A DNA stretch of 64,000 bases, taken from contig OY970208.1 in assembly GCA_963713865.1 (NCBI GenBank), forward strand, positions 1,760,001 to 1,824,000, written 5' to 3'. Origin of the DNA: an uncultured candidate division Zixibacteria bacterium (GTDB lineage Bacteria; Zixibacteria; MSB-5A5; RBG-16-43-9). The position numbers and the translations under genes were made by a program. The notes below the pieces were generated by a model. It ran no database searches and was not told the origin of the DNA. It was given only the letters and a program-made list of their open reading frames with translations. This document shows positions 13,307-27,269 of the stretch, piece after piece (within the stretch, counting starts at the first letter, position 1; each line of letters begins with the position of its first letter).

Positions 13307-13319
13307 TAGTGGGTTTTTC

Positions 13320-13619
13320 GTAGTGCGACCCTTTTAGGGTCGCTGTAGTTGTAATGGTCCGCCTGGGGTGGATCAGCCTTCCATCGTTTTTCGTAGTGCG
13401 ACTCCTTTCAAGGACTGTTGAAAAAATGGAATTAGTAGAGTGTCATTCTGAATCCCCGTAGGGGATGAAGAATCTCTGTATTACTTAATAAGATTCTTCG
13501 GTCGTCCCCGTAAGGGACTCCCTCAGAATGACAAAGCTCGTAGTGCGACCCTGCTTGTCCCGTCGCAGGCGGGATCAGGGTCGCAAGAATGGTAGGACAG
13601 GACAGTGTCCTGTCCCTAC
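13320..13619. repeat. Cluster of GTAG-type REP hairpins
   Basis: GTAGTGCGAC at about 13320, 13393 and 13540; GTAGGACAGGACAGTGTCCTGTCCCTAC at 13592-13619. Confidence 0.7.
13441..13533. repeat. Palindromic miniature element TGTCATTCTGA...AAGAATCT / AGATTCTT...TCAGAATGACA
   Basis: Nested inverted repeats; second, truncated copy at 13721-13780. Confidence 0.8.
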
Positions 13620-13781
13620 ATACATTATAGGTATCCCCACCTTGCCCTCAAGGTGGGGTAATATTATATGTTCGTAATTCGTCATTAATTATTATATTAA
13701 CGCAATGTACTCCTTTCATCTGTCATTCTGAGTCCCCGTAGGGGACGAAGAATCTTCATATTAATCTTAGAGATTCTTCGA

Positions 13782-13873
13782 GGGTGGCACCCTCAAACTT
13801 GTTTGAGGGTGAGTCTGGAAGTTTCTGCAAATGCCTTTAATAGCATCCCCAAAACAATTTTGGGGATGGCACG
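13782..13873. repeat. Double-hairpin REPIN-like element
   Basis: CACCCTCAAAC-TT-GTTTGAGGGTG and CATCCCCAAAA-CAA-TTTTGGGGATG; fragments recur near 27375 and 61470. Confidence 0.6.
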
Positions 13874-13942
13874 CCACCTTGCCCTACTTTTTCTTTGTTA
13901 TCCAACGTTCTTCATCCGTTATATTTTTAGCGTATATTTTGT

Positions 13943-13971
13943 TTGACATCTAAGCTGGTTGATTTTATATT
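13943..13971 (+). promoter_or_regulatory. sigma70 promoter of the tRNA genes
   Basis: TTGACA-17 nt-TATATT, 12 nt upstream of tRNA-Arg. Confidence 0.75.
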
Positions 13972-13983
13972 GGCTTTAAATTT

Positions 13984-14057
13984 GCGCCTATAGCTCAACT
14001 GGATAGAGCATCGGACTTCGGATCCGAGGGTTGAGGGTTCAAATCCCCCTAGGCGCG
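13984..14057 (+). tRNA. tRNA-Arg (anticodon TCG), CCA not encoded
   Basis: Acceptor stem GCGCCTA/TAGGCGC; anticodon arm TCGGA-CT-TCG-GA-TCCGA; T-loop TTCAAAT. Confidence 0.95.
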
Positions 14058-14268
14058 GTGGGAAGTGATTAGTGAGAGAGTGATTAGTGATTAGGTGATA
14101 GTAAATAGATAGCAGGTCATAGGTGATAGGTTGTAGGTCAAAGGTTATAGATAGGAGGGAAGGGCACTAACCACTATGAACTATGAACCATTAACCAATA
14201 AGTGAAAGAGTAATTAGCTTTTTCTTTTGACTTTAGCCTATAGACTTTAGACTTAAGACTGTGTTTCC

Positions 14269-14343
<75 letters not shown>

Positions 14344-14436
14344 CTTTCAATTAAAGGCTAAAGGCAAGAGGCAATAGTCTAAAAGCAAATTTGGAGTGTA
14401 AAGTCTTTAGATCCTGGTGACTTTAGCTTTACCTTA

Positions 14437-14466
14437 GTAGTAGGTCAGGAGCTTTATGCTCCTTAC
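14437..14466 (+). repeat. Array REPIN-like repeat, left half
   Basis: GTAGTAGGTCAGGAGC-TTTAT-GCTCCTTAC. Confidence 0.75.
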
Positions 14467-14511
14467 GTAATCTGAAAACCATATAAACATAAATTAAGAG
14501 CACTTCCACCG

Positions 14512-15213
14512 ATGTACTGGAAGCGATACCAAGAGGAAACCGCTAGCTTTTTTCGAAGCCTTGGCTGCGATGTAGAAGTTGACGCAACAGTGAAAGGAGC
14601 TCGCGCGAAGCACAAGGTTGATGTATTAGTCCGGTTCAGACGGTTTGGATTAGAAACAAAATGGGTAGTCGAGTGCAAGCTTTGGCAGACATCTGTACCC
14701 AAGGAAAAAGTGCTGGCGTTGAAATCAACCATCGAGGATGTGGGAGCGGACCGTGGTATTTTGGTATCATCGGCAGGTTTTCAGAGTGGCGCGGTCCGTG
14801 CCGCTACAAGCACCAATATCTCACTAACCAGTCTGGATGAACTCAAAGAGACTGCGGAAGAAGAGCTAGTGTCATCTGTCCTCCACACTCTTGAAACAAG
14901 AGTAATTGAGCTGAAGTACGCTCTATCAGACCTCTACAGCATAGAACAGACAACTTCTCACTTTTGGATATCCATGCCCCTTATTGGGGTGGATAGTGGT
15001 GCTGTGTACCGTGCTATTGGTGCTCTTTCCTTCCTTGAGTTTGGATTTGACCGAGCACGACTCCGGAAACCTCCGTACCCAATCAAGTTCGGTGAACCTG
15101 GCCAAGGGCAGTTCCTTGCTATGACGCTAGAGGAATTCGTCGAGGGCGCTGCTCAAGTCATCTGTGAGGCGCAAACCACGCTGAATTCACAGCACCCGGG
15201 GAAATTCTCATAA
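14512..15213 (+). CDS. Mrr-like (PD-D/ExK) restriction endonuclease domain protein
   Basis: E...HKVDVLV...VVECKLW...DVGADRGILVSSAGFQSGA pattern. Confidence 0.8.
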   Translation: MYWKRYQEETASFFRSLGCDVEVDATVKGARAKHKVDVLVRFRRFGLETKWVVECKLWQTSVPKEKVLALKSTIEDVGADRGILVSSAGFQSGAVRAATSTNISLTSLDELKETAEEELVSSVLHTLETRVIELKYALSDLYSIEQTTSHFWISMPLIGVDSGAVYRAIGALSFLEFGFDRARLRKPPYPIKFGEPGQGQFLAMTLEEFVEGAAQVICEAQTTLNSQHPGKFS

Positions 15214-15224
15214 TATGAGTCTTC

Positions 15225-15282
15225 GCCTAACTCATCATTTCAGCGGACTCGATGCACTTGCTGCTGATTTTGAACGTTGTGC
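15225..15282 (+). mobile_element. attC-like integron recombination site (58 bp)
   Basis: GCCTAAC (RYYYAAC) ... TCAGCGG / TTGCTGCTGA inner stem ... GTTGTGC (near GTTRRRY), 11 nt after a stop codon. Confidence 0.65.
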
Positions 15283-15309
15283 TGTAAATATATTCTGTGC
15301 GGAGATGTT

Positions 15310-15615
15310 ATGTTAAATGAGAAGTCTATTAAGATCGGAAACGCTTTTCATAAGTATGCCGATTCTGGAGATAAATCCCATATTGAGAATTTCACTTTAG
15401 AAGAAATAGAGAATGCAATCATACAGTATGGGTTAGACAAAGGTTCCCCATTTTACATTGCAATGGAACGACGAATTAACGAATTAAAAGCAATTGAAAG
15501 CCAACGACAATTGAAACAAGAAAAATGGAAAGATAGGTTATATGGGTTCGTATTTGGTCTTCTGATTGGGTTAATTCTATATTTAATCAAATATTTATTA
15601 GAGAAAGGGAAATAA
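15310..15615 (+). CDS. Hypothetical protein with a C-terminal TM helix (101 aa)
   Basis: GGAG RBS before ATG 15310; hydrophobic LYGFVFGLLIGLILYLI. Confidence 0.7.
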   Translation: MLNEKSIKIGNAFHKYADSGDKSHIENFTLEEIENAIIQYGLDKGSPFYIAMERRINELKAIESQRQLKQEKWKDRLYGFVFGLLIGLILYLIKYLLEKGK

Positions 15616-15623
15616 AAGTATTA

Positions 15624-15813
15624 GTAGCTTAGAAGCTACGTGCTCCTGAAACTATCATTAAGATTTTAAACTTACACCCTACACTTCTCTTAAAAAGAGA
15701 GGGGGATTAAGGGGATGAGTTTAGAAGGTTGTCAGCCACCCTGAGTTTGTGCTTCGACAGACTCAGCACCCTGAGGTAATCGAAGGGTCGAAGGGTGGGT
15801 ATGGTTGACCTGC
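15624..15813 (+). repeat. Composite nested repeat, copy 1
   Basis: About 185-bp direct repeat of 18334-18520. Confidence 0.9.
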
Positions 15814-15995
15814 AAGCTGGAGACATACCCGTTGCCTTTCATAAACAAATTAAATTTTTCACAATTTAATATACACTATAATCAAGCATAATCACCTTGA
15901 CATCAAGGTTGAGCTGTGTAATATTATATAAAGAGCAAAAACCGATTCAGAGGGGGATTTATGACAGAAAGCTTAAAAAGATCAAGGGAGGATGT

Positions 15996-18167
15996 ATGAA
16001 AAATAAGACTATGATTAGTATACTCCTATTCATTGGTATTAGTCTCATTGCAGGTGAGGTTTTCTCTGAGACAAATCACCCGAACAAAGCTTATGACCTG
16101 CTCAAAAATCTTGAGACAGGATACGAACAGTTTGAGGAAATCGAGATTGGGGACAAAATAGTATATTTTTATCAAAGGGTGGTGGGCAATGCGATCGTGG
16201 AGAAAGATTTTATAGTTTACTACTTTAACAAAGATACTCAGGAACTCATAGCCAAAAATAGTCACTGGCGGGAAGACATTCCGGAAAATTTACCTGAGAT
16301 GATGGTGACGAAAGAACAAGCAGAAGCTGTGGTTGGCGGGGAGGTTCAATACTCTAAGCTATACTATATATCCCCGGAATCAGATGTTTTTCCAATCAAG
16401 CCAGCACCCCGAAATCCCTGCTGGGTCGTGAGAAGCATAGATAATGGTAACTTGACCGAGACAGTCGTTGATGCTGTGGATGGTAAAATATGGGGTAATG
16501 CTATTCCGCCACCCTACACCGGATTCTCGATGACAGGACCTTGGTATTTTGACCTCTGTAGCGGTTTTTGGGAGTCCTGGTATGAAAATGCTGCCGAGTG
16601 GTTCGATAGAATGGGATATTCCACAGAATCTACAGTATGGCCAACAGAGGAAAAGATTAAAAGCCATATTCAATCTAGTGAAACTGCAATGTTTTATGAG
16701 ATTGCTCACAGCGAGGGGAGAAGTGACCAATTTAAGAGCGGCTGCGTAGATGGAACCGATCCAGAATACACTTATGCCAGCGAGATCAAGACCTGGATTG
16801 CCGATTATCAAAAAATGCCGTTCGCTTTCCTGGCAAGCTGTTACGCGCTGTGCGACACAGGTGAGGGCACCTTATCACATGAGTTCAGGAAGGGCTCCAC
16901 TGAAAAAACGGTTACGCTGGGTTACTGTAATATGAGCGAGGAACAATGTGCTGATTGCTGGACATATTCTCTGTCCTGGCAAGATACGCTGTTCTTCTAC
17001 CTGAGTCAAGGCTGGACAGTGAAACAGGCATTTGATAAAGCTAATTTAGCATACCCTGCTTGCGCAATTCCGAATTGCATGCGATTCGCTGGAGATGTAA
17101 ATTTTGCGGTTATCCCTACAGTAGCGAGGGAACCGGTTGAATGCGGAGATACAATAACTCAAGACAAGACATTACACAATGACCTTTTAGATTGTGTGAG
17201 TCACGGCTTGATAATCAATGCTGACAGTATAACCATTGATTGTGATGGTCACCTGATCCAGGGAGACGAAGCTGGTATCGATTATGGAATTTATCTGAAC
17301 CACAGAGAGGGTATCACCATCAAGAACTGCAAGGTGCAAGGATTTGAGATAGGAATTAATCTGGATTCCAGTTGCAACAACAATCTGGAGAGAAATACCC
17401 TAAGGGATAACAGCTATGGAGTATATCTTGGCAATTCGCAGAATAATACCTTCCGGAACAATAAATTTATAGATAATGTGGTAAACGCCTATGAAGATTC
17501 TATCTCTAATAATAATGACTGGAATCCAAATAATAGCGGCAACTTCTGGTCTGACTGCTATTATAATCCTGGCTACCCGGATTATTATGAGATTTCCGGA
17601 CCAGGTGATGGGGTGGACCACTACCCCGATTGCCCAAATACTCCTCCCGGGCTATTTTCTCTCCTTTCACCTTCCGACAGCAGTTTAATCTTTTGTTTTC
17701 CCTTCTATCCCATGCCATACGTTCCCTGTGAGGTAACTTTTGACTGGGAAGATGCCGTAGACCCTGACCCATGGGATGATACCATAAGATATGATTTATA
17801 TATTAGCACTTCTTCAGTTTTCTCTCCCGATTCAACGACCATATATAATAGTCTTCTTAACAGCCAATATACTGATACCCTTGCCCTGGGAAGTTTTTTC
17901 TGGACAGTAAGGGCTTATGACAATCGTTCTGAAACATGGGCTAAAGATACGTTGAGCTTTTGCTTTTTTGAAATAGGTGATGCAAACTGCAATAACTCTT
18001 TATCGGTTTCTGATGTGGTCTACATAATAAACTATCTCTTCAAAAGCGGTCTTCCTCCTTGTGGTATGCAAGCGGCAGATGTTACTTGCGATGGTCGGGT
18101 AACTGTAAGCGACGTGATCTATTTGATTAATTATCTTTTCAAAGGTGGCCCACCGAATGGGTGTTGA
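15996..18167 (+). CDS. Secreted protein: putative clan CD-like peptidase domain, beta-helix (NosD-like) region, FN3-like domain, dockerin
   Basis: GGAGG RBS before ATG 15996; EIAHSEG and FLASC motifs; GIYL..S.NN repeats; GDANCNNSLSVSDVVYIINYLF. Confidence 0.75.
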   Translation: MKNKTMISILLFIGISLIAGEVFSETNHPNKAYDLLKNLETGYEQFEEIEIGDKIVYFYQRVVGNAIVEKDFIVYYFNKDTQELIAKNSHWREDIPENLPEMMVTKEQAEAVVGGEVQYSKLYYISPESDVFPIKPAPRNPCWVVRSIDNGNLTETVVDAVDGKIWGNAIPPPYTGFSMTGPWYFDLCSGFWESWYENAAEWFDRMGYSTESTVWPTEEKIKSHIQSSETAMFYEIAHSEGRSDQFKSGCVDGTDPEYTYASEIKTWIADYQKMPFAFLASCYALCDTGEGTLSHEFRKGSTEKTVTLGYCNMSEEQCADCWTYSLSWQDTLFFYLSQGWTVKQAFDKANLAYPACAIPNCMRFAGDVNFAVIPTVAREPVECGDTITQDKTLHNDLLDCVSHGLIINADSITIDCDGHLIQGDEAGIDYGIYLNHREGITIKNCKVQGFEIGINLDSSCNNNLERNTLRDNSYGVYLGNSQNNTFRNNKFIDNVVNAYEDSISNNNDWNPNNSGNFWSDCYYNPGYPDYYEISGPGDGVDHYPDCPNTPPGLFSLLSPSDSSLIFCFPFYPMPYVPCEVTFDWEDAVDPDPWDDTIRYDLYISTSSVFSPDSTTIYNSLLNSQYTDTLALGSFFWTVRAYDNRSETWAKDTLSFCFFEIGDANCNNSLSVSDVVYIINYLFKSGLPPCGMQAADVTCDGRVTVSDVIYLINYLFKGGPPNGC

Positions 18168-18223
18168 GAGCACCCAGAAGCGATGAAAAGAGGCTGAATA
18201 TTCTCGCTTGGTGCCATCAGAAA

Positions 18224-18310
18224 AGTTCTGAACTCGTCCATCTGGGGACGCTTTGATTAATCAGGCAAAAAGCAATAGTCAAAAGGCTTGCAAAACTGGA
18301 GTGTAAAGAT
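18224..18310 (+). repeat. Degenerate duplicate of the tRNA-Glu 3' end and its downstream flank
   Basis: TGGGGACGCTTT at 18243-18254 equals 14336-14347; both are followed by GCAATAGTC and TGGAGTGTAAAG. Confidence 0.7.
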
Positions 18311-18333
18311 TTATCTTTACCATAGATAATATA

Positions 18334-18520
18334 TTAGAAGCTACGTGCTCCTGAAACTATCATAAAGGTTTTGAACTCACCCCTGTGTCCCCTCTCTTAA
18401 AAAGAGAGGGAGAATAAGGGGGTGAGTTTAGAATGCTGTCAACCACCCTGAGTTTGTGCTTCGACAGACTCAGCACCCTGAGGTAATCGAAGGGTCGAAG
18501 GGTGGGTATGGTTGACCTAC
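18334..18520 (+). repeat. Composite nested repeat, copy 2
   Basis: Direct repeat of 15629-15813. Confidence 0.9.
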
Positions 18521-18554
18521 GACTCAAATAAATCAGCCATTTAAGGAGATTCTT

Positions 18555-19307
18555 ATGCACACCACAGGAAACACTATCTTAATTACCGGAGGAGCAACCG
18601 GCATTGGATTTGCTCTGGCAGAAGCTTTTCTCCTAAAAGGAAACGAAGTTCTCATTTGCGGTAGACGGGAAGATAAGCTGGTTGAAGCTAAAAACAAATT
18701 GCCTAAACTCCATACCAGAAGATGTGACCTTGCTGAGACAGAAGATCGAAAGCGTTTATTGGATTGGGCGGTCACGAATTTCAGGAGCCTGAACATCCTG
18801 ATCAACAATGCAGGTATTCAAAGGGAGATCGATTTCGAAAAGGGAACAGCTGATTTGCTAAGCGGGGAAAACGAAATCGAAATAAACCTGCAGGCTCCGG
18901 TTCATCTTTCTGCATTATTTATTCCTCATTTAATGAAACAGAAAGAAGCAGCCATTGTGAACATCTCCTCCGGACTTGGTTTCGTTCCCCTGGCGATTAT
19001 GCCGGTGTATTGTGCTACAAAAGCAGCAATACATTCTTTCAGCTTATCATTGAGACACCAGCTCAGGGATACATCCATAAAAGTATTCGAAATTATCCCT
19101 CCTACAACGGACACAGAGCTTGACAGGGGAGCACGGGATAAAAGAGGCCAGGCAGATCGGGGAATAAAGCCTGAAGTAGTTGCGGAAGCAGCTATCGAAG
19201 CAATAGACAAGGATAACTATGAGACTGCAGTTGGTCAGGCACAATTCTTACGCGATAGTTCGAGAAAAGAGCCAGAACGGGTGTTTCAGATCATAAATGC
19301 GAGATAG
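18555..19307 (+). CDS. Short-chain dehydrogenase/reductase (DltE-like)
   Basis: TGGATGIG, NNAG, YCATK. Confidence 0.92.
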   Translation: MHTTGNTILITGGATGIGFALAEAFLLKGNEVLICGRREDKLVEAKNKLPKLHTRRCDLAETEDRKRLLDWAVTNFRSLNILINNAGIQREIDFEKGTADLLSGENEIEINLQAPVHLSALFIPHLMKQKEAAIVNISSGLGFVPLAIMPVYCATKAAIHSFSLSLRHQLRDTSIKVFEIIPPTTDTELDRGARDKRGQADRGIKPEVVAEAAIEAIDKDNYETAVGQAQFLRDSSRKEPERVFQIINAR

Positions 19308-19432
19308 TCAATCGTAGTTTCTGGCACTATTAAGGTTTGAACTCACCCCCATACCCTTCTCTTTAAAAGAGAGGGGGATTAAGGGGGTGAGTTTATCAGC
19401 GGTAGGTCAGGCGTTCAGGGCACTCGACCTGC
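19305..19432 (+). repeat. Array repeat with inserted AACTCACCCC...GGGGTGAGTT hairpin
   Basis: Shares the CTCTTxAAAAGAGAG hairpin with the 15.7 and 18.4 kb copies; ends GTAGGTCAGGCG...CGACCTGC. Confidence 0.75.
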
Positions 19433-19460
19433 GAGGCTTAATCATCAGGAAAGGATAAAT

Positions 19461-19739
19461 ATGAACATGATGCACGTTAACGGCAAGAACAAAGGGCATA
19501 TCGTCCTCTATACGCTGAGCACTTGCGGGTGGTGCAAGAAGACCAAACGTCTTCTCAACGAGATGGGGGTCGAATATTATTATCACGATGTCGACCTTCT
19601 GGAAGGCAAGAGTAAAGAAAAAACGCTGGAGGAGATAAGCCGCTGGAATCCCGCGTGTACTTTCCCCACCCTGGTGATTAACGATAAATGCATCGTTGGC
19701 TACCAGGAACAGGAGATCAAGGAGACGATTGGATTATGA
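19461..19739 (+). CDS. Glutaredoxin/NrdH-like redoxin
   Basis: CGWC active site; TFPTLVI. Confidence 0.9.
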
Positions 19740-20248
19740 ATGATAAAATAGAAGTTACCGAAGAAGAAGTAGAAAAGCTATACAAAAGGCTGAATCGGGA
19801 AGCCGAGACATCCGGGTACCATCTCAATACGGATGCGGAACATATCAGGGAGCTTGTCAGGGGTTTGCTCGTAAACGAGAAAAGGTATGGATACTGGTCC
19901 TGTCCATGCAGGCTGGCGTCAGGAAGCAAAGAGGGAGACCTCGATATAATCTGCCCTTGCGATTATAGGGACCAGGACCTGAATGAGTACGGCACCTGCT
20001 ATTGTGCCCTTTACGTCTCACAGGCAGTTTTAAAAGGGGAGAAAAAGTTAGGGCCAATACCTGAAAGGCGTCCATTCTTAGATGAAAGGAAGAAAGCCCG
20101 TTTCAAGCCTAAGGTGGTAAACATCCCTTCCCTTGCCCTGCCGGTGTGGAGATGTAAGGTCTGCGGCTATTTATGTGCCAGAGAGGAGCCGCCAGAGGTA
20201 TGCCCTGTATGCAAGGCAAAAAAAGAACGTTTTGAGCAGTTCATGTAA
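19736..20248 (+). CDS. Ferredoxin:thioredoxin reductase catalytic domain fused to a rubredoxin-like domain
   Basis: CPC...CPC...CYC motifs plus CKVC...CPVC; ATG overlaps the redoxin stop. Confidence 0.9.
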
Positions 20249-20310
20249 GTAATAGGTCAGGAGCTTTGAGCTCCCAGCCTATTCATTTGGCAGGTGTACA
20301 TAGAGTAACT
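20249..20310 (+). repeat. Array REPIN-like repeat
   Basis: GTAATAGGTCAGGAGCTTTGAGCTCC...CTATTCATTTGGCAGGTG directly after the stop codon. Confidence 0.75.
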
Positions 20311-20370
20311 GCTCGATGAGGATAATCTGTCAGTGTATTTAAGTATAGCCTTTTCCAGGAGGTGATTGAC

Positions 20371-20697
20371 ATGGCTTTCAAGGCAGTGTTTCTTGCTCAC
20401 GTTCCTGATGCGGACCCGGAGAAACATAGGTGCGTGATTGAAACCGGCATGTATAAGCTCTTCTCTGTTCTGGTGAAAAACCATAACCAGGCAATAGAGA
20501 TCTGCAAGCAACTGGTCAAAGAGGAAGGTATTCACTCAATCATCCTTTGTCCCGGAAACACACACAAAGATATTGCAGAGATATCAAAAGCAGTAGGCAG
20601 AGACGTCTCCGTCTCGGTGGCAAGAGGAGACAGTCCGAGCATGAGGACTGCTCAGAAAATAATGGAGAGGGAAGGATGGTTTTCAGGACGACCGTAA
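20371..20697 (+). CDS. Conserved hypothetical protein (DUF6506-like)
   Basis: AGGAGGTGA RBS; FLAHVPDADPEKHR and IILCPG; family assignment from memory. Confidence 0.65.
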   Translation: MAFKAVFLAHVPDADPEKHRCVIETGMYKLFSVLVKNHNQAIEICKQLVKEEGIHSIILCPGNTHKDIAEISKAVGRDVSVSVARGDSPSMRTAQKIMEREGWFSGRP

Positions 20698-20766
20698 GAA
20701 TAATGGGTCATGAGCCTGAGATTCTGACACTATTCGTTTGTTATGTGCGCAAGGCACCCGAATTAC
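20698..20766 (+). repeat. Array REPIN-like repeat (degenerate, full length)
   Basis: GGGTCATGAGC...TTCTGACACTATTCGTTTGTTATGTGCGCAAGGCACCCGAATTAC. Confidence 0.7.
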
Positions 20767-20790
20767 GAGTCTATAATGGGAAGCGAAAAT

Positions 20791-21786
20791 ATGTTTGCCA
20801 TTGAAGTGCAAGGGCTTGTTAAGATTTACGATACCATACTAAGGGCTCTGGATGGGGTCGATTTATCCGTCAAGACCGGCGATGTCTTCGCGCTGTTAGG
20901 TCCCAATGGAGCTGGCAAAACCACGCTTATCCGAATCCTGACCACCCAGCTTAGACCCTCGGCGGGCAAGGCGTCTATTTTTGGACTGGATGTTGTGAAG
21001 CGGGATGCTGAGATCCGAAAAGTAATGAGCTACGTGCCCCAGGAGATGAGCGTGTGGACGGATATCAGCGGTTTTGAGAATCTGCTGATCTATTCCAAGA
21101 TTTATGGCCTACCTTCCGGCCAGAGGAAGAAAGTGGTCCAAGAGGCTCTGGAAAGCATGGGCTTAAATGAAGTGGCGAACTTACTGGTCCGAACCTATTC
21201 CGGGGGCATGATCCGCAGGCTCGAGGTCGCCTGTGCGCTGTTGATCAAGCCCAAAATGATGTTTTTAGACGAGCCGACCATCGGCCTGGACCCCGCAGCC
21301 CGGAAAGCCGTGTGGGAGAAGATCCTGTCCTTCAAGAATGAGATCGGGACTACTGTGTTTTTCAATACCCATTACATGGACGAGGCAGATCTTTACTCCG
21401 ACGGGATCGCAATCATCGACCGGGGCAAAATCGTAACCTCCGGTACCGCTGCCGAGCTTAAGGGTTCTATCCGCCGGGATGTGATCCATATCAGTGCAGG
21501 GGAGGGGAGCCTGGGGGAGGGGATTATAAGTAAAATTCGGGGTTTGGGCTTTGTCAACGACGTGATGGTCAATAGCTCTGAACTTACAATCATGGTCGGA
21601 GATGCCGAGACAGCGCTGCCTGGTATCCTCGAAGCTTTGCGAATCGATAACGTCGTCGTGAAAAAGATATCGGCCACGAAACCGACTTTGGACGACGTGT
21701 TTTTAAAATATGCCGGAACTACATTTTTACCCATTGCTGGTACCAGCGATGTCAGGCAGGTCCGGCGCAGGATAAAGAGAGGATGA
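20791..21786 (+). CDS. ABC exporter ATP-binding protein (DrrA-like)
   Basis: GPNGAGKT, YSGGM, FLDEPT; the upstream ORF extension lies inside a repeat. Confidence 0.92.
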   Translation: MFAIEVQGLVKIYDTILRALDGVDLSVKTGDVFALLGPNGAGKTTLIRILTTQLRPSAGKASIFGLDVVKRDAEIRKVMSYVPQEMSVWTDISGFENLLIYSKIYGLPSGQRKKVVQEALESMGLNEVANLLVRTYSGGMIRRLEVACALLIKPKMMFLDEPTIGLDPAARKAVWEKILSFKNEIGTTVFFNTHYMDEADLYSDGIAIIDRGKIVTSGTAAELKGSIRRDVIHISAGEGSLGEGIISKIRGLGFVNDVMVNSSELTIMVGDAETALPGILEALRIDNVVVKKISATKPTLDDVFLKYAGTTFLPIAGTSDVRQVRRRIKRG

Positions 21787-21790
21787 GCAT

Positions 21791-22561
21791 ATGATGATCA
21801 AGGATTCGATTAGAGAAATGTTTGCGATGATGGAGCTTGAGCTCCGCAGGATCAGGCACGACCGGACAGAGATTTACACCCGGGCCATTCAGCCGATCCT
21901 CTGGCTGGTGGTCTACGGGACGATTATGAGCAGCGTTCGGGCTATTCCGACCAGCGGGATACCGTACTTGGATTACATCACCCCGGGTGTGCTGCTACAG
22001 TCGACAGTCTTCGTCTCGGTCTTCTACGGCTTGACGATCGTATGGGAAAGGGAAACGGGTATTCTGAAGAAGTTGCTTACGGCGCCCGTCCCAAGGTATG
22101 CTACGGTAATCGGTAAGTGCATCGCTTCGGGAGTCCGGGCTGTTTTTCAAGCTCTGATCATCGTACCGGTGGCGATGCTGATCGGAGTGAGATTCGTCCT
22201 CAATCCATTGTACCTTTTTACGGCACTACTTCTCCTGTTTTTGATTTCGGGTGGGTTTGCTGCCATCTCCATCCTGGTAGCGTCTTTCATGAAGACCCGG
22301 GAGCGGTTTATGGGAATCGGCCAGGCCCTGATCATGCCCCTGTTCTTCAGCAGCAGCGCGTTGTACCCGGTCAAAATGATGCCACCGCTTTTGCAAACCA
22401 TCGCTATCCTCAACCCCTTGACGTATGCTGTGGATGCGGTGAGGGGCCTGTCGATCACCGGAGACGTAAGCCATCTCCTCAGGGACAGCGCTGCCCTGGT
22501 TATATTCGATGTTGTTATGTTCATCGTCGCTTCGATCAGCTTCAGGAAAATCATCGAATGA
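21791..22561 (+). CDS. ABC-2 type permease (DrrB-like)
   Basis: WERETGILKKLL, LNPLTYAVDAVR, six TM segments. Confidence 0.92.
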   Translation: MMIKDSIREMFAMMELELRRIRHDRTEIYTRAIQPILWLVVYGTIMSSVRAIPTSGIPYLDYITPGVLLQSTVFVSVFYGLTIVWERETGILKKLLTAPVPRYATVIGKCIASGVRAVFQALIIVPVAMLIGVRFVLNPLYLFTALLLLFLISGGFAAISILVASFMKTRERFMGIGQALIMPLFFSSSALYPVKMMPPLLQTIAILNPLTYAVDAVRGLSITGDVSHLLRDSAALVIFDVVMFIVASISFRKIIE

Positions 22562-22630
22562 GAGCAGTAGATAAGGATTCCATACCCCTTCAACTATTCA
22601 TTTATGAGGTGCGTAACACCATTAATCTAC
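22562..22630 (+). repeat. Array REPIN-like repeat (degenerate)
   Basis: GCAGTAGATAAGGA...AACTATTCATTTATGAGGTGC...AATCTAC directly after the stop codon. Confidence 0.6.
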
Positions 22631-22664
22631 GAGGCTGGTCAGTAACAGGAAGCGGTTAACAACG

Positions 22665-23330
22665 ATGGAAAATGTGCTTGTTTCATGGAGCGGTGGAAAG
22701 GACGGTGCTTTTGCACTCTATGAAATTCTTGAGGGTCAAAAGTACCGAATCGCTGCTCTGCTCACAACCGTGACCGAAGATTATGACCGCATCAGTATGC
22801 ACGGTGTCCAGCGCATTTTGCTCGAACGACAAGTTGATTCTTTGGGTTTTCCCCTTGAAGAAGTGTTCATTTCAAAGAATGCGTCTAACGAAGAGTATGA
22901 ATCGAAAATGGTGCGGGTGCTTACGCGCTATAAGGAAGCAGGAGTTACTTCAGTTGTTTTTGGAGACATCTTCCTGGAAGACTTAAGAGAATATCGGGAA
23001 AGTAACCTTGCAAAGATAGGGATGAAAGGTATCTTTCCCTTATGGAAAAAAGACACTCGGGAATTAGCCCATTCTCTCATACTACTAGGCTTCAAAGCAG
23101 TTACCACTTGCGTTGACACCAATGCTCTGGACAGGGGATTTGTTGGTAAAGTGATTGATGAGCAATTTTTGTCTGAACTGCCTGTGATGGTTGACCCGTG
23201 CGGCGAAAATGGCGAGTATCACTCTTTTGTCTACGATGGACCGATTTTCAAAAAGAGAATATCCTATACGCCTGGGGGAATTGTCTTAAGGGAAAACCGC
23301 TTTTGCTATTGTGATTTGATCCCGGAATAG
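22665..23330 (+). CDS. PP-loop ATPase, diphthine-ammonia ligase/MJ0570-like family
   Basis: SWSGGKD, FGDIFLED, DPCGENGEYHSFVYDGP. Confidence 0.9.
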   Translation: MENVLVSWSGGKDGAFALYEILEGQKYRIAALLTTVTEDYDRISMHGVQRILLERQVDSLGFPLEEVFISKNASNEEYESKMVRVLTRYKEAGVTSVVFGDIFLEDLREYRESNLAKIGMKGIFPLWKKDTRELAHSLILLGFKAVTTCVDTNALDRGFVGKVIDEQFLSELPVMVDPCGENGEYHSFVYDGPIFKKRISYTPGGIVLRENRFCYCDLIPE

Positions 23331-23418
23331 GGAGCAGTAGCAGGGGTATTATAGGATAGATATAAACAGTGTCAGCCCCAGGGAAAAAGAACTCGTATAA
23401 GTTGATATAAGAGAATTT

Positions 23419-24624
23419 GTGATCAAACCGTATCCTCTATCGACTGAGAAAACAGACGTTATCATCATTGGAGCTGGCGCGTCAGGGCTAATGTGCTCAA
23501 TCGAAGCTGGCAAGCGTCACCGTAAGGTGCTCGTTTTTGATCATGCAAAAAAGCCGGGGCAAAAAATTTTGATGTCCGGCGGCGGGCGCTGCAATTTTAC
23601 GAATTACCATATAAATGCCGACAACTATATTTCCCATAATCTACATTTCTGCAAGTCAGCACTCAGCCGCTACACTCAATGGGATTTTTTGACATTGGTG
23701 CAGAAGCATCATATCGCCTTTAGTGAGAAAGCCCATGGACAACTCTTCTGTGATGGCAGCTCCCGTGACATTCTGAACATGCTGTTATCCGAGTGCGAAC
23801 AGGCGGGGGTCTCTTTTCAGGTAAATTCGAAAATTGAAAAGATCGAACGGCTGGGTGAGCATCATTTCAAAGTATACAGCAGTCGGGGCAATTATACCTG
23901 CCAGTCGTTGGTCGTTGCTACGGGTGGACTATCCATGCCGGCGATAGGCGCAAGTCCTTTGGGGTATGAAATTGCCGAGCTGTTTCATATCAAGGTGTGG
24001 CCGCTACGTGCCGGTTTAGTTCCCTTCACTCTTCATCCGAAGGATAAAGAAAAACTATCAACCTTATCTGGTATTGCGGTTGATGCCGTGGTCAGTAATA
24101 AACGGCAAAGTTTTTATGATAACATCTTGTTTACGCACCGGGGTTTGAGCGGTTCTGCCATCCTGCAAATGTCATCATATTGGCAACCCAGCGAGGAGCT
24201 TACCATAAATCTGTTACCAGAGATTGATCTGGTCAATGTACTGAAAGAACAGCAGCAACAGCACCCGCAGCGGAAGGTGAAATCAGTGTTGGCGGAATAT
24301 TTACCTAAACGTCTTGTGGCGATAATGATAATGAGTGATCTTGCAGAAAGCCCATTACGGAAAATCTCTCATCACCAATTTAAGGAAATTTCAGCGCAGT
24401 TCCAGCAATGGACCATCAAACCAGGCGGCACCGAGGGTTACCGAACCGCGGAGGTGACTTTGGGGGGAGTAGATTGTAATGCGATTTCATCCAAAACCAT
24501 GGAAACTCATCCGGTGGCAGGGCTGTTTTTTACTGGTGAAGTACTGGATGTGAGTGGTTGGCTGGGTGGTTATAATCTCCAATGGGCATGGTCATCGGGC
24601 TGGTGTGCTGGACAGTATGTTTAG
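23419..24624 (+). CDS. HI0933/BaiN (YhiN-like) flavoprotein
   Basis: GAGASG, KILMSGGGRCNFTN, LFTHRGLSG, GGYNLQWAWSSG. Confidence 0.93.
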   Translation: MIKPYPLSTEKTDVIIIGAGASGLMCSIEAGKRHRKVLVFDHAKKPGQKILMSGGGRCNFTNYHINADNYISHNLHFCKSALSRYTQWDFLTLVQKHHIAFSEKAHGQLFCDGSSRDILNMLLSECEQAGVSFQVNSKIEKIERLGEHHFKVYSSRGNYTCQSLVVATGGLSMPAIGASPLGYEIAELFHIKVWPLRAGLVPFTLHPKDKEKLSTLSGIAVDAVVSNKRQSFYDNILFTHRGLSGSAILQMSSYWQPSEELTINLLPEIDLVNVLKEQQQQHPQRKVKSVLAEYLPKRLVAIMIMSDLAESPLRKISHHQFKEISAQFQQWTIKPGGTEGYRTAEVTLGGVDCNAISSKTMETHPVAGLFFTGEVLDVSGWLGGYNLQWAWSSGWCAGQYV

Positions 24625-24672
24625 CGCATTAGGGTAAATACGTTGTTTCTTATCTTCATGGAGGATTAAAAG

Positions 24673-25311
24673 ATGGTAAAGAGCAATCTAAATATCGCAC
24701 GTATTTTCTGTATCGGTCGGAATTATGTTAATCACGTTCAGGAGATGAAAAATATTATACCGACCAAACCGGTTATTTTTATCAAACCAGCATCATGTCT
24801 TGTCGGACCAGGTGAAAAAATTCATTTCCCCAAACATGGAACCCAGCTTCACCACGAGGTTGAGATAGTGGTGCAAGTCGGTAGCGAGGGAAGGGTAGTG
24901 AGGGAAGAAGAGGCGCTTTCCTTTATCTGTTCTATTACCGTTGGTCTGGATTTGACCCTTCGGGATATTCAAGAAGACCTGAAGAAAAAGGGCTTACCGT
25001 GGGAAATTGCCAAGGCTTTTGAACAAAGCGCTCCCATAGGTAATTTCGTCCCGTATGATCAGTCAGTTGACTTGAAAAATATCTTATTTGGATGCAAGGT
25101 CAACGGAATAGAGAGACAGAGAGGAAATACCGGTGAGATGATATTCAGCATCGGGAAACTTTTGGTAGAATTGAGTAAGATCTGGATGCTTCACCCTGGA
25201 GACTTGATATATACGGGCACTCCCTCAGGAGTCGGTCCGCTCAAGATAGGGGATTCGATTGAAATTGAAAGTGACCTAACTGGATCATTCTCGTGGAGCA
25301 TTATTGAGTGA
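24673..25311 (+). CDS. Fumarylacetoacetate hydrolase family protein
   Basis: CIGRNY, HHEVE, DLTLRD, PGDLIYTGTPSGVG. Confidence 0.93.
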   Translation: MVKSNLNIARIFCIGRNYVNHVQEMKNIIPTKPVIFIKPASCLVGPGEKIHFPKHGTQLHHEVEIVVQVGSEGRVVREEEALSFICSITVGLDLTLRDIQEDLKKKGLPWEIAKAFEQSAPIGNFVPYDQSVDLKNILFGCKVNGIERQRGNTGEMIFSIGKLLVELSKIWMLHPGDLIYTGTPSGVGPLKIGDSIEIESDLTGSFSWSIIE

Positions 25312-25320
25312 GATAGAATT

Positions 25321-25367
25321 AGTAGAAAGTAGACAGTAGGACAGGTGGGTAGGGTACCTGACCTACT
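25321..25367 (+). repeat. Array repeat, contracted single-hairpin form
   Basis: AGTAGGACAGGT...ACCTGACCTACT. Confidence 0.75.
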
Positions 25368-25404
25368 TATTCGACAACCAGATAATCAATAGATAACTAA
25401 AATA

Positions 25405-25869
25405 ATGAAGAACATGTCAAATGATATTACGATTAATCCGGCAACAGAAGCTGACTTACCATCAATCAAACCATTACTCCTGGAATTGATGGATGCAATG
25501 GACAACACCGAAGGTTTTGACGTAGAACAATCATTGGAGAACTGCCGTACCCTGATCAAAGATCATGCTCATTATATGCTTTTGGCAAAAGATAAGGATA
25601 AGGTAGCAGGATTGGTAAACTTCACGACGAGAAAAACGATAATGCATTCAGGTCCATCAGGACTTATAGATGAGTTGATTGTTTCCAGAAGTCATCGAGG
25701 TCTGGGAATTGGAAAACAACTGATCTTAGCTGCTATCCAAAAATGTCGAGAGCTTGACTGTTGTGAAGTCGAAGTCAGCACAGAAAAAAGCAATACAAAG
25801 GCAAGAGAGTTCTACCAGAGATGTGGTTTTGAAGAGGATGCGGTCTTGCTGGAAATAGATTTAAAGTAG
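25405..25869 (+). CDS. GNAT family N-acetyltransferase
   Basis: HRGLGIGKQLI motif A; N..AREFY..CGF. Confidence 0.9.
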   Translation: MKNMSNDITINPATEADLPSIKPLLLELMDAMDNTEGFDVEQSLENCRTLIKDHAHYMLLAKDKDKVAGLVNFTTRKTIMHSGPSGLIDELIVSRSHRGLGIGKQLILAAIQKCRELDCCEVEVSTEKSNTKAREFYQRCGFEEDAVLLEIDLK

Positions 25870-25935
25870 TAGTAGATCAGGAATCCCATTTCCTGAAACT
25901 AATTATTTGTCAGGTGCACTGGGCACCTGACCTAC
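25866..25935 (+). repeat. Array REPIN-like repeat, best-preserved copy
   Basis: GTAGATCAGGAA-TCCCAT-TTCCTGAAACTAATTATTTGTCAGGTGC-ACTGG-GCACCTGACCTAC overlapping the GNAT stop. Confidence 0.85.
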
Positions 25936-25964
25936 AGGGCTGAAATTGCTTGACTGAGAGAAAC

Positions 25965-26446
25965 ATGAAAGAAAAAAAGGAGAGCATCCATTTGGTGATG
26001 CTGGACAGTTGATATTGCTTGGGCTGTTTCTAATTATCTGGGTGGCGGATTCGTTTATCCTGCGAAAATCAACGTTTCTGTCGAATTACTTGCCGCCTTA
26101 TGTTCGTTTAGTCGTTTTGGGCATTACACTTATTATAGCTGTGTTTCTTTTCAGGTCAGGTCATGTTGTCGTCAGTCAAGAGCAAAGGCCAAACAGGGTA
26201 GTAGTAAACGGAGCGTTTAGGTACGTAAGACACCCTTTGTACTTAGCCAGCATATTAGTTTACCTCGGACTGGCCGTCTCTACTGCTTCACTTTTCTCTT
26301 TTATGTTACTTGTTGGGATATGGATTTTCCACAATTACATTGCAAGCTATGAAGAGAAACTGCTGGAGGCAAAGTTTGGAGAGGAATACCGGAGGTATAA
26401 AAAGCGAACAGGGAAATGGATGCCAAGAATCGGCAGAGTGCGTTAA
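25965..26446 (+). CDS. Isoprenylcysteine carboxyl methyltransferase (Ste14/ICMT) family protein; needs a -1 frameshift near the start
   Basis: YVRHPLY and EE..L...FGEEY..Y motifs; ATG 25965 is out of frame by one base in the A7 run at 25972-25978. Confidence 0.8.
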
Positions 26447-26483
26447 GTAGTAGACCCGTAATCCTGTGCTCCTGACAATATTC
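26447..26483 (+). repeat. Array repeat, left half
   Basis: GTAGTAGACCCGTAATCCTGTGCTCCTGACAATATTC directly after the stop codon. Confidence 0.6.
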
Positions 26484-26486
26484 CTT

Positions 26487-27269
26487 ATGAAAAACCTGAG
26501 AACATACGGAAAAACGCCCTTTAACGTCGCTGTGATTCACGGTGGTCCAGGTGCAGCTGGTGAGATGGCTCCAGTAGCGCGTGAACTCGCATCCAGCCGG
26601 GGTATTTTGGAACCGCTTCAAACTGCAGTATCGCTCGAAGGACAAGTCGAAGAGTTAAAAACTGTTCTGGAAAAGAAGGGGGACCTTCCCATTATATTGA
26701 TCGGCTTTTCCTGGGGAGCTTGGCTCAGTTTTATATTTGCTGCTAATTATCCTGCATTCGTAAATAAACTGATACTCATCGGAAGCGGTCCCTATGAAGA
26801 AAAATATGCTGCAAAAATTTTAGAGACCAGGTTGAACCGCCTCAGTGAGGAGGATAGAACAGAGGTCAAATCTATCCTTGAAGTTTTAGACAATCCTGAA
26901 GCTGAGGACAAAGGTAAGGCATTTGCGCGGTTCGGAGCATTATTCTCAGAAGCCGATACGTATGATCCAATAATGTCCGAATCTGTAGTAATTGATTGCC
27001 GGGTTGATATTTTTCAAAGCGTGTGGAAGGATGCCGGGGAACTGAGAAGGAGCGGGAAGCTTCTGGAACTTGGGAAACATATCAAATGTCCGGTGGTTGC
27101 GATCCACGGCGACTACGATCCCCACCCGGCTGAAGGAGTCCAAAAGCCCTTGTCTGTCATTCTAAAGAACTTCCGATTTATCCTGCTTACAAACTGTGGG
27201 CACAAACCCTGGATTGAACGGAAAGCGAGGGGAGAGTTTTTTCGAATCCTCGAAGAGGAATTGCATTAA
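26487..27269 (+). CDS. Alpha/beta hydrolase
   Basis: HGGPG, GFSWG nucleophile elbow, HGDYD, CGH. Confidence 0.9.
   Translation: MKNLRTYGKTPFNVAVIHGGPGAAGEMAPVARELASSRGILEPLQTAVSLEGQVEELKTVLEKKGDLPIILIGFSWGAWLSFIFAANYPAFVNKLILIGSGPYEEKYAAKILETRLNRLSEEDRTEVKSILEVLDNPEAEDKGKAFARFGALFSEADTYDPIMSESVVIDCRVDIFQSVWKDAGELRRSGKLLELGKHIKCPVVAIHGDYDPHPAEGVQKPLSVILKNFRFILLTNCGHKPWIERKARGEFFRILEEELH

Follow-up and report, generated by a model that had tools for sequence, protein, structure and literature searches.

To our knowledge, only integrons are well understood among the systems that store and shuffle single-gene cassettes, for which they rely on one enzyme family (IntI) and one type of site (attC). 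The function of repetitive extragenic palindromes (REPs) and of REP-associated tyrosine transposases (RAYTs) has been debated for decades, and Bertels and Rainey are said to have linked, in 2011, REP doublets forming hairpins (REPINs) to these RAYT/TnpA-REP transposases. As described in passages of Di Nocera 2013 (PMC3733652), REPs are GTAG-tagged short palindromes, of which head-to-head dimers occur, and they lie mainly behind genes, between unidirectional and convergent open reading frames (ORFs). Here, we analyse a stretch of 64,000 nucleotides (hereafter the window; G000:C1:1760001-1824000) from an uncultured candidate division Zixibacteria bacterium, whose genome (G000; assembly GCA_963713865.1, contig OY970208.1) is a single contig of 2.72 Mb with 40% G+C. 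Behind a tRNA-Glu gene, the window carries an array of accessory genes whose boundaries are marked by copies of a ~70-nt GTAG-tagged repeat. This repeat family is clustered, keeps a fixed polarity and is conserved order-wide, and the units between its copies turn over as modules, show excess similarity between lineages and are of mixed base composition. We give a probability of about one half to the reading that the locus is a hypervariable row of accessory modules behind tRNA-Glu, each bounded by a GTAG-tagged REP and moved by an enzyme at the repeats. Throughout, coordinates are window positions unless given as G000:C1, as kb of the genome or on another contig; the 41 Zixibacteria genomes used as relatives are coded G0xx, metagenome loci Lxxx, and contigs assembled from sequencing runs X1, X2, X3 and X5.

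A GTAG-tagged repeat at the unit boundaries

The array (14512-27269) comprises 15 genes, all on the + strand in our ORF selection and, according to a Pfam scan, of families without mutual relation, as the initial annotation had described for the region from 14.5 to 27.3 kb. Inspection of all spacers between 14344 and 27428 revealed a whole, half, decayed or interrupted copy of the repeat at 11 of 15 junctions, invariably on the + strand, which bears out the earlier claim of a singly oriented repeat at almost every boundary of a gene or two-gene unit. Free of any copy are the junctions within the pairs formed by the Mrr nuclease gene and a 112-aa ORF, the glutaredoxin (Grx) and ferredoxin-thioredoxin reductase (FTR) fusion genes, the ABC ATPase and permease genes, and the HI0933-like flavoprotein and FAA hydrolase (FAH) genes, and also the junction of the alpha/beta hydrolase gene with the following histidine kinase gene, where the array ends. 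A covariance model, R1, whose 14 seed sequences were full copies taken from G000, G001, G003, G009 and another genome, matched 9 of the 11 positions that the initial annotation had listed, all on the + strand at E<=1, four of them strongly (63-85 bits; 20247, 20698, 22562 and 25867) and five weakly (15-27 bits; 14435, 15619, 18324, 19397 and 26445). The model misses the other two, of which the one listed at 25321 consists of a right hairpin only and that at 23331 of a decayed head; the junction orthologous to the latter in G001 has a full copy. Copies 15622, 18327 and 19311 are each split by a second small hairpin element, resembling a miniature inverted-repeat transposable element (MITE). The repeat head abuts or overlaps stop codons (TAA-GTAGTAG, TAG-TAGGTCAGG), and the next ATG can follow the tail, CTAC-RRGGCT, without a gap, as at the hydrolase gene of G001; AAGG or GAGG in the tail is predicted to be able to act as ribosome-binding site of the next gene.

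The ~70-nt repeat consists of two inverted hairpins of one unit, with GTAG outermost (a head-to-head dimer), and has the consensus AGTAGTAG-GTCAGGAGC-loop-GCTCCTGAC-ACTATTCATTT-GTCAGGTGC-loop-GCACCTGAC-CTAC-RRGGCT; the layout of the copy at 25869-25935 is GTAG-hairpin-ACTAATTATTT-hairpin-CTAC. Within the 14 full seed copies, 77% of the stem cells pair, as against 28-37% with a slid partner, two-sided pair changes number 9 versus 4.2 in shuffles, and the closing helix of GTAG and CTAC pairs in 82% of cells. Across 41 distinct copies from at least 12 genomes, head (GTAG), end (CTAC) and a strongly conserved linker are shared; conservation peaks in this linker, ACTATTCATTTG, and in the loops, and the consensus opens AGTAGTAGGTCAGG and closes CCTGACCTACGAGGCT. 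Counted over all loci, 267 copies divide into 138 full dimers, 87 left-only copies (51 of which end at ...CTGACACTATT(C)), 35 right-only copies and 7 internal pieces. In a variant found in L125 (e.g. 4617-4714), L131, L202 and others, ~20 nt (ACGAGCCCGTCTGGGC) are inserted into the right-hairpin loop, and 13 copies stop at model positions 51-52 owing to this insertion. An Rfam scan returned nothing but the two tRNAs, the repeats are not intrinsic terminators (no hairpin followed by a T run), and promoter-like sites occur at chance level. A GTAG-tagged short palindrome, as in REPs, and two inverted REPs forming a larger hairpin-capable unit, as in REPINs, are both present, and the pairing and two-sided changes of the stems uphold the REPIN-like identity first proposed; the high dispersed copy number of REPs and REPINs is not seen, with ~26 places per 2.72 Mb and 0-32 matches in the relatives. 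Judged by its anatomy, the element is a REP/REPIN, unusual in copy number, clustering, polarity and conservation.

Genome-wide, R1 gave 34 matches at E<=1, equivalent to ~26 places, 7 of which lie within the 12.9 kb of the array (0.47% of the genome), where 0.12 would be expected; most of the remaining places fall into three regions, at 767-805 kb, 2653-2690 kb and 208 kb. Six dimers outside the window lie beside unidirectional genes, three co-oriented with them and three not, a small sample that is not typical. Among the 41 related genomes, 33 carry the repeat family (0-32 matches each), often in same-strand runs with copies 0.5-1.3 kb apart, and between families with core-gene identities of 65-70% the repeat stays near its consensus. 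When metagenome contigs were scanned for the exact pattern, 109 stretches were hit; 78 loci were fetched, 72 of them non-redundant, and 68 of these hold 168 copies. In the 48 metagenome loci with at least two copies, 140 of 148 copies lie on the majority strand of their locus. Between unidirectional ORFs, 76 metagenome copies are co-oriented with the genes versus 10 anti-oriented, and the remainder lie between convergent (26) or divergent (6) ORFs, at contig edges (37) or distant from ORFs (13). Copies at similar density and in random orientation between core genes, the pattern that the initial annotation had named as contradicting it, were thus not what mapping with the covariance model gave; they are clustered, on the same strand, in cassette-like arrays.

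The units between successive repeats in the metagenome loci (n = 76) have a median length of 648 nt and contain one co-oriented ORF in 36 cases, two in 14, three in 7 and five in 1; 7 others contain an anti-oriented ORF only, 5 no ORF and 6 a mixture. Of 111 ORFs in these units, 92 were scanned, and 60 of the 92 gave no Pfam family; the families of the other 32 include AbiEi/AbiEii, BrnT, RelB, DUF2283, an ABC-3C set, HNH, SDR, PEMT, PP-loop and hydrolases. When 623 neighbouring ORFs from the 68 metagenome loci were clustered, the biggest protein cluster spanned 6 loci. Ten more arrays in the relatives lie between housekeeping genes (tyrS, holA, lptE and a PGA_cap gene, for example), and carry ParE-like genes, BrnT/CopG and DUF2283/PBECR2 pairs, HEPN, GNAT, nucleotidyltransferase and methylase-Mrr fusion genes, together with many ORFs without family. 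The cargo resembles that of integron cassettes, with toxin-antitoxin pairs, defence genes and many unknowns, and repeat-bounded one-gene units with such cargo recur in four families of the order.

The features of the locus are listed in Table 1. Upstream of the array the order is ccmF (cytochrome c maturation), tRNA-Arg and tRNA-Glu, and the array begins behind CcmF-tRNA-tRNA also in G001, G002 and G007. The ABC pair, for which a higher G+C content had been noted, has 52-53% GC and 62-70% GC at third codon positions (GC3); the flanking CcmF, histidine kinase and NtrC genes have 40-42% GC and a GC3 of 42-46%. Inside the array, GC3 spans from 31% in the orphan 112-aa ORF and 39% in the GNAT gene up to the 62-70% of the ABC pair. 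The gene at 15897, initially labelled a peptidase, is a NosD/beta-helix/dockerin protein by Pfam. In the fusion gene, a ferredoxin-thioredoxin-reductase catalytic domain is joined to a rubredoxin-like domain, and the gene overlaps that of the glutaredoxin by 52 nt; this Grx-FTR pair travels together in at least five genomes, including G004, G006, G007 and G008.

Table 1. Genes, repeat copies and related features in and beside the array (window positions; R1, bit score of the covariance model)
Feature	Position	Strand	Evidence and remarks
tRNA-Arg (TCG)	13983-14058	+	ARAGORN; Rfam tRNA 67 bits
tRNA-Glu (TTC)	14269-14344	+	ARAGORN; Rfam
Repeat, left hairpin only (GTAGTAGGTCAGGAGC-TTTA-GCTCC...)	14437-14466	+	R1 26.8 bits
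Mrr_cat nuclease	14512-15213	+	Pfam; two-gene unit 14512-15615 with 112-aa ORF
112-aa ORF, no family, GC3 31%	15277-15615	+	Second gene of Mrr unit
Repeat, composite: left hairpin and tail, nested MITE-like hairpin 15657-15723, long right hairpin ending GGTTGACCTGC	15622-15813	+	R1 25.7 bits
NosD/beta-helix/dockerin protein, 756 aa	15897-18167	+	Pfam; 83% nt identity to G003
tRNA-Glu 3'-end remnant, 27 nt	18225-18251	+	Alignment; then copy of post-tRNA spacer to ~18333
Repeat, composite, near-duplicate of 15622-15813, nested MITE 18364-18430	18327-18520	+	R1 19.3 bits
Short-chain dehydrogenase (SDR) unit	18555-19307	+	Pfam
Repeat, decayed left part, MITE 19329-19395, collapsed dimer (GTAGGTCAGGCG..GACCTGC-GAGGC)	19311-19437	+	
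Glutaredoxin and FeThRed_B-rubredoxin fusion, two-gene unit	19461-20248	+	Pfam; overlapping ORFs
Repeat, full dimer, right hairpin decayed	20249-20318	+	R1 65.7 bits
DUF6506 unit	20362-20697	+	Pfam
Repeat, full dimer	20700-20767	+	R1 63.2 bits
ABC ATPase and ABC-2 permease, two-gene unit	20743-22561	+	Pfam
Repeat, full dimer	22564-22630	+	R1 63.4 bits
PP-loop ATPase (Diphthami_syn_2) unit	22665-23330	+	Pfam
Repeat, decayed remnant, head GGAGCAGTAGCAGG only	23333-23400	+	No R1 match
HI0933-like flavoprotein and FAH, two-gene unit	23419-25311	+	Pfam; no repeat between the genes
Repeat, right-type hairpin only (GTAGGACAGGTGG..TACCTGACCTAC), ends in exact CCTGACCTAC	25330-25366	+	No R1 match; nhmmer E=8
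GNAT acetyltransferase unit	25405-25869	+	Pfam
Repeat, best-kept copy, overlaps GNAT stop codon	25869-25935	+	R1 85.2 bits
PEMT/ICMT-like methyltransferase (ICMT) unit	26009-26446	+	Pfam
Repeat, left hairpin and tail, abuts ATG of hydrolase gene	26447-26486	+	R1 15.3 bits
Alpha/beta hydrolase, final array gene	26488-27269	+	Pfam; no repeat after; then histidine kinase and NtrC pair

Other repeats crowd the neighbourhood of the array. The spacer between ccmF and tRNA-Arg (13307-13982; 676 nt) is filled with other hairpin repeats, among them three copies of a second GTAG-type family (TCGTAGTGCGACCC..GGGTCGC), whose 15-mer has 23 exact copies in the genome, and a 60-nt unit duplicated at 13441 and 13721. 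Another small repeat family, marked by TGGAGTGTAAAG (14392-14403 and 18297-18308; 29 exact and 95 one-mismatch copies genome-wide), makes up most of the "spacer" behind tRNA-Glu.

Turnover, exchange and borders of the units

Relatives were compared by a DNA search of the 41 genomes and then by tblastn on the fetched loci. The window genes are co-oriented but differently ordered in G001, G002, G003, G004, G006, G007, G009, G012, G020 and L140, and in G001, G002, G006, G007 and G009 the repeat, in gene orientation, sits between them as well; the initial annotation would have been contradicted by a gene order conserved in relatives without the repeats, and the orders differ among relatives. In G001, of the same genus, the order is tRNA, two other genes, PP-loop, HI0933-FAH, GNAT and hydrolase; in G002, tRNA, ~0.9 kb, FAH and GNAT; in G007, tRNA, two ORFs, ICMT, one ORF, FAH and Grx-FTR; and in G006, SDR, FAH and Grx-FTR. 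At another chromosomal site in G009, which belongs to another family, it is ICMT, DUF4389, one ORF, DUF6506, PP-loop, hydrolase, SOD, methyltransferase, ABC pair and FAH, and in L140, ~92% identical in the shared genes, ICMT, an Exo_endo_phos gene, SDR, an AbiE pair and Grx-FTR. The ICMT block 25937-26485 is absent from G001, its left edge lying exactly after CCTGACCTAC, and the homology of the PP-loop unit to G001 and G009 begins at most 5 nt from the CTAC end of the repeat. An X5 contig (1598 nt, 90-95% identical) joins 20709 to 22625 via 127 other letters and therefore lacks the ABC pair between the DUF6506 and PP-loop genes; G009 shows the same adjacency without the ABC pair between. Wholly different cassettes lie behind the same PGA_cap gene in G032 and G016, two genomes of one genus. 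In these comparisons, the array behaves as a set of one- and two-gene modules that occur in other orders and combinations in relatives.

Matches of at least 250 nt between the window array and relatives cover one unit each, with the exception of one in G012 that spans ICMT and hydrolase. To G009, six units show nucleotide identities of 79-86% (84% for the ABC unit), whereas the similarity of that genome to the window over the neighbouring 20 kb is at most 68%, mostly with no match, and HI0933 is 93% identical to G007, compared with 73-79% for long matches in the neighbouring 20 kb. Together with the mosaic of GC3 values, this excess identity points to the transfer of single units between lineages.

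As to where the units break, match ends between contigs (>=88% identity, >=300 nt) fall inside a repeat in 75 of 273 cases, repeats covering 2.8% of the sequence, a count that loses weight in that the ends are not independent and tend to lie between genes anyway. At one junction between G032 and G016, identity is 80% to the left and 98.6% over 69 nt to the right of a point inside the right hairpin, which suggests a switch within that hairpin; other junctions break at CTAC or in the linker, so that no crossover rule could be set. Gain, loss and shuffling of units at repeat-filled spacers, as the initial annotation anticipated, are thus seen among relatives, and the fixed breakpoint that it placed at the GTAG end is not established. 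The comparison of sequencing runs covered contigs only, and no run contained more than 0.13 of the sampled words; two joints in run contigs, 18404 to 19370 (X3, side 25) and 19395 to 26486 (X2), have a short side and were set aside as too weak to count as findings.

The repeats are themselves interrupted. Some insertion sequence (IS) elements are known to target REPs. The MITE-like hairpin element (~67 nt; AAGGTTTTGAACTCACCCC...CTCTCTTAAAAAGAGAG...GGGGGTGAGTTTAG), nested in three window copies (Table 1) and present at many related loci, lies directly behind ...CTGACACTATT of the REP in at least 17 distinct cases and therefore targets the REP tail. In contigs of X1, X3 and X5, the stretch 19331-19416, with the third MITE, is replaced by 15 other letters.

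The proximal end of the array calls for separate consideration. The tRNA-Glu remnant at 18225-18251 matches 14323-14344 and carries a 5-nt CCATY insertion; the 3' end of the tRNA is thus directly repeated at the distal border, as in genomic islands, and together with the copy of the downstream spacer that follows, up to 18333, this repeat implies that the block of nuclease, orphan ORF and NosD genes may be a tRNA-targeted island. For 14345-18251 alone, integration into the 3' end of tRNA-Glu by a since-lost tyrosine integrase, independently of the repeats, is a distinctly possible if somewhat doubtful account. It suits the presence of a restriction-type nuclease and of an orphan ORF of low GC3 in the block, and the fact that G001 and G002 have other genes at this position. 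It is harder to square with the absence of an integrase among the three ORFs of 14512-18167 (Pfam) and of any PF00589 match in the window, and with the length of the duplicated stretch (~150 nt), which includes a REP half. Moreover, the same remnant with its 5-nt insertion occurs in L140 (4925-5010, - strand) at another position relative to SDR, and therefore behaves as another shuffled piece; arrays of other genomes do not lie at tRNA genes, so the tRNA is no part of the system.

Candidate enzymes and opposing evidence

The profiles Y1_Tnp and Phage_integrase (PF00589) have no match within the window, in line with the initial annotation, which had found no recombinase there. The tyrosine recombinases of the source genome are a 97-aa IntI remnant, one intact Xer-like protein (300 aa) and one frameshifted recombinase. 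The IntI remnant, a C-terminal ORF ~1 Mb from the window (G000:C1:753844-754137; L118 1417-1710), scores 106.7 bits to positions 247-315 of TIGR02249, for which the cut-off is 265, and is a dead integron remnant. The array might on this ground be taken for a true integron remnant, a cluster of attC sites lacking integron-integrases (CALIN), with unusual attC sites and an IntI encoded elsewhere or lost. Co-oriented cassettes with sites of the same polarity, the CALIN arrangement, are indeed what we find (11/15 junctions; 140/148; 76 vs 10), unit size and cargo also resemble those of integron cassettes, and a full IntI, above cut-off, is encoded in 3 of the 41 relatives. The core boxes of attC have the consensus RYYYAAC (R'') and GTTRRRY (R'). 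Neither occurs at the ends of the repeat, which are GTAG and CTAC with no AAC...GTT; IntI in 3/41 genomes contrasts with the repeat in 33/41; no array of the repeat lies beside the three intI genes, one weak dimer being found 860 nt from that of G014; and tblastn gave no IntI match in the 611 kb around 78 metagenome copies. Integron membership was accordingly rejected for lack of an IntI by the array and of attC core boxes, and we regard the CALIN explanation as largely refuted and hardly credible.

The source genome carries eight Y1_Tnp (RAYT/IS200-like) genes, the nearest at G000:C1:1824991-1825311, ~1 kb past the window end; most of them are flanked on one or both sides by a GTAG/CTAC-tagged hairpin type of their own. 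The gene at 801 kb (146 aa; G000:C1:801100-802400; L001/L111), which lies between two copies of a small membrane-protein gene, has copies of the repeat 260 and 480 nt away and is bracketed by CAGTTCGCT-GA-AGCGAACTG and CAGTTGCTT-TT-AAGCAACTG. In an nhmmer search of 14 Y1_Tnp loci, clear repeat copies lay beside this gene of the source genome only; none lies within 1.5 kb of the other seven Y1_Tnp genes of that genome, although the one at 1502 kb has a hairpin with the same GTAGGTCAG foot and a different stem. The presence of the 801-kb and 1502-kb RAYTs does not track that of the repeat, and the RAYT flanked by this repeat that the initial annotation had called for was not convincingly found. 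No gene was conserved as a neighbour in more than 6 of 68 loci, a survey in which serine recombinases and DDE and IS110 transposases were not searched for as such.

Several observations weigh against the movement of units by an enzyme at the repeats. Concerning the RAYTs, the hairpin pair bracketing the 801-kb gene is conserved in G033, G016 and G006, and a clear copy of our repeat is found at none of these three orthologous loci (one weak, E=0.32); the 801-kb and 1502-kb genes are present in 7/41 and 6/41 genomes, compared with 33/41 for the repeat; and tblastn with the eight Y1 proteins, the Xer-like protein and IntI on 611 kb from 78 metagenome loci gave one Y1-like and one Xer-like match, neither of them adjacent. 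Concerning the borders, breakpoints within the repeat (93 near repeats) are spread over head, linker and tail with no dominant position, and the linker class is largely due to singlet forms and to MITEs targeting ...ACTATT. The ABC unit is followed in G009 by a different repeat family, the homology ending at the stop codon, and the spacer between FAH and GNAT varies among three genomes of a single genus, indicating that the repeats also turn over independently. Recombination from MITE to MITE and from composite to composite can account for some of the differences; a MITE-to-MITE deletion could produce that between the window and L140. Finally, stem mismatches show no strand bias (74 G:T and 63 A:C, p=0.39), and selection for a fold of one strand is therefore not visible.

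Part of this evidence favours another explanation, in which the copies are ordinary selfish or host-used REPs behind genes, in a poorly constrained region that is reshuffled by homologous or illegitimate recombination and by transfer through flanking homology, with no capture enzyme; the REPs might then stabilise mRNA 3' ends or mark places where the transcript is processed between cistrons. REPs in general lie mainly behind genes, between unidirectional and convergent ORFs, in the account that passages of PMC3733652 give. The changing repeat content of the same spacers among close genomes, the same cargo followed by different repeat families in different genomes, the fit of the window/L140 difference to a MITE-to-MITE deletion and the lack of a linked recombinase all agree with it, and fixed polarity (76 vs 10) with an AU-rich conserved linker would suit a role at the RNA level. 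The MITEs, and the two composites at 15622 and 18327, which share an exact run of 76 nt, are long enough for homologous recombination, and the X3 contig joins MITE to MITE across SDR, if weakly (side 25). The four intact dimers of the window, however, share exact runs of only 6-10 nt, which makes homologous recombination between them unlikely today. Also at odds with ordinary REPs are a copy number far below that of classical REP families, the cassette-like clusters, one-gene units with integron-like cargo across four families of the order, a repeat near consensus where core genes are 65-70% identical, and the absence of the excess of G:T over A:C that selection on an RNA fold should leave. 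We consider this explanation rather unlikely, though one to be kept in mind.

Another candidate is a host tyrosine recombinase of the Xer-like kind acting on double-stranded DNA, the dimer centre GCTCCTGACA-CTATTCATT-TGTCAGGTGC being its core site and the asymmetric spacer fixing polarity. No part of the repeat is better conserved than the linker, which has an inverted arm on either side; polarity is fixed, stem mismatches lack a strand bias, and the genome encodes an intact 300-aa Xer-like recombinase, an enzyme of a usually universal kind, which would fit the wide spread of the repeat. Core sites of tyrosine recombinases usually have a spacer of 6-8 nt. That of the repeat, at 9-11 nt, is longer; many copies are singlets without the second arm (87 left-only of 267), and the GTAG tag and hairpin form are marks of HUH substrates. 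Such a recombinase is, in our view, improbable as the agent.

Proposed movement of the units and comparison with known systems

In the reading that we favour, the repeats would be the points at which units leave and enter the array, through the action of an enzyme whose gene lies elsewhere. The most likely agent would be a RAYT-like HUH Y1 transposase working on a folded single strand; GTAG would guide it, and the conserved CT, which occurs both just 3' of the left hairpin and within the terminal CTAC, would offer candidate cleavage points. RAYTs, as set out in passages of Corneloup 2021 (PMC8266576), cleave single-stranded REPs at a CT on the 5' or the 3' side of the hairpin, guided by GTAG; the repeat retains CT directly 3' of its left hairpin and in CTAC, and the left edges of the ICMT and PP-loop units lie at CTAC or no more than 5 nt from it. 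Further deletions would come from recombination between the nested repeats, which are longer. The array would thus work like an integron without being one. As for the integron-like capture array at REPIN sites that the initial annotation had proposed, its modules, polarity, cargo, turnover and exchange stand as patterns; a link to a RAYT was not convincingly found, and a fixed crossover could not be established. No recombinase lies beside any array, and the RAYT candidates are patchy and not convincingly linked to the repeat, so that capture in trans goes no further than an inference. A bolder version, which we put forward only tentatively and hold to be unlikely as a whole, is that Zixibacteria possess an integrase-free counterpart of the integron, with site-specific exchange, at the linker CT or the CTAC end, of one- or two-gene cassettes bounded by GTAG hairpin dimers, many small arrays lying between housekeeping genes and trade across families of the phylum; its enzyme would be a trans-acting HUH single-strand transposase or a host recombinase.

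No description of REP-bounded cassette arrays was found in the titles and abstract openings of the literature searched. Here a known kind of site, the GTAG-tagged REP dimer, marks the borders of cassette-like units across an order of an uncultured phylum without an integrase. If an enzyme moves these units, gene capture becomes a role of REPs and RAYTs, and cassette arrays can form along a second route, independent of the first; if none does, the locus is a clear case of small repeats organising hotspots of accessory genes, and cautions that a layout resembling an integron's need not reflect integron machinery.

Four systems invite comparison. The "peel and paste" elements of the IS200/IS605 group have non-autonomous derivatives, palindrome-associated transposable elements (PATEs), that are mobilised in trans. 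Hairpin ends recognised on one strand, cleavage a few nt outside the hairpin at a site set by a 5' guide tetranucleotide, insertion in one orientation and action in trans would liken our units to them, the single-strand model being described for IS608 in passages of PMC8266576. In contrast to those elements, our units contain no transposase, carry ordinary cellular genes and have yielded no fixed target tetranucleotide or exact junction. The pdif modules of Acinetobacter plasmids consist of genes bounded by 28-bp XerC/D sites in inverted pairs and are moved by the host Xer. Discrete modules bounded by short sites, with an enzyme encoded elsewhere (here presumed), are common to both, whereas our sites are GTAG hairpins of 36-70 nt, in direct order and on a chromosome.

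With REPs and REPINs, the repeat shares GTAG at the foot of a short G+C-rich palindrome, an inverted dimer with GTAG outside, an extragenic position just behind genes, the occurrence of singlets, dimers and mosaics, a CT just 3' of the hairpin, which is where RAYTs cut according to passages of PMC8266576, and several RAYT-like genes in the genome. It differs from them in that it occupies ~26 places per genome rather than hundreds, forms same-strand clusters one gene apart and has a strong polarity relative to genes; in that the linker and not the stems is best kept; and in being conserved over four families with no RAYT shown to be flanked by it. Compared with integrons and CALIN, our arrays have no IntI, attI or attC core boxes, and they are many and small, lying between housekeeping genes rather than forming one platform; sites are also single, 10 of the 86 between unidirectional ORFs are reversed, and cargo is not always tied to the type of site. 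Like integrons and CALIN, our arrays consist of compact, co-oriented units that mostly hold one gene and have an imperfectly palindromic site behind them, often in contact with the stop codon; their cargo is rich in toxin-antitoxin, defence and unknown genes, and units are reordered, gained and lost among relatives and exchanged across lineages.

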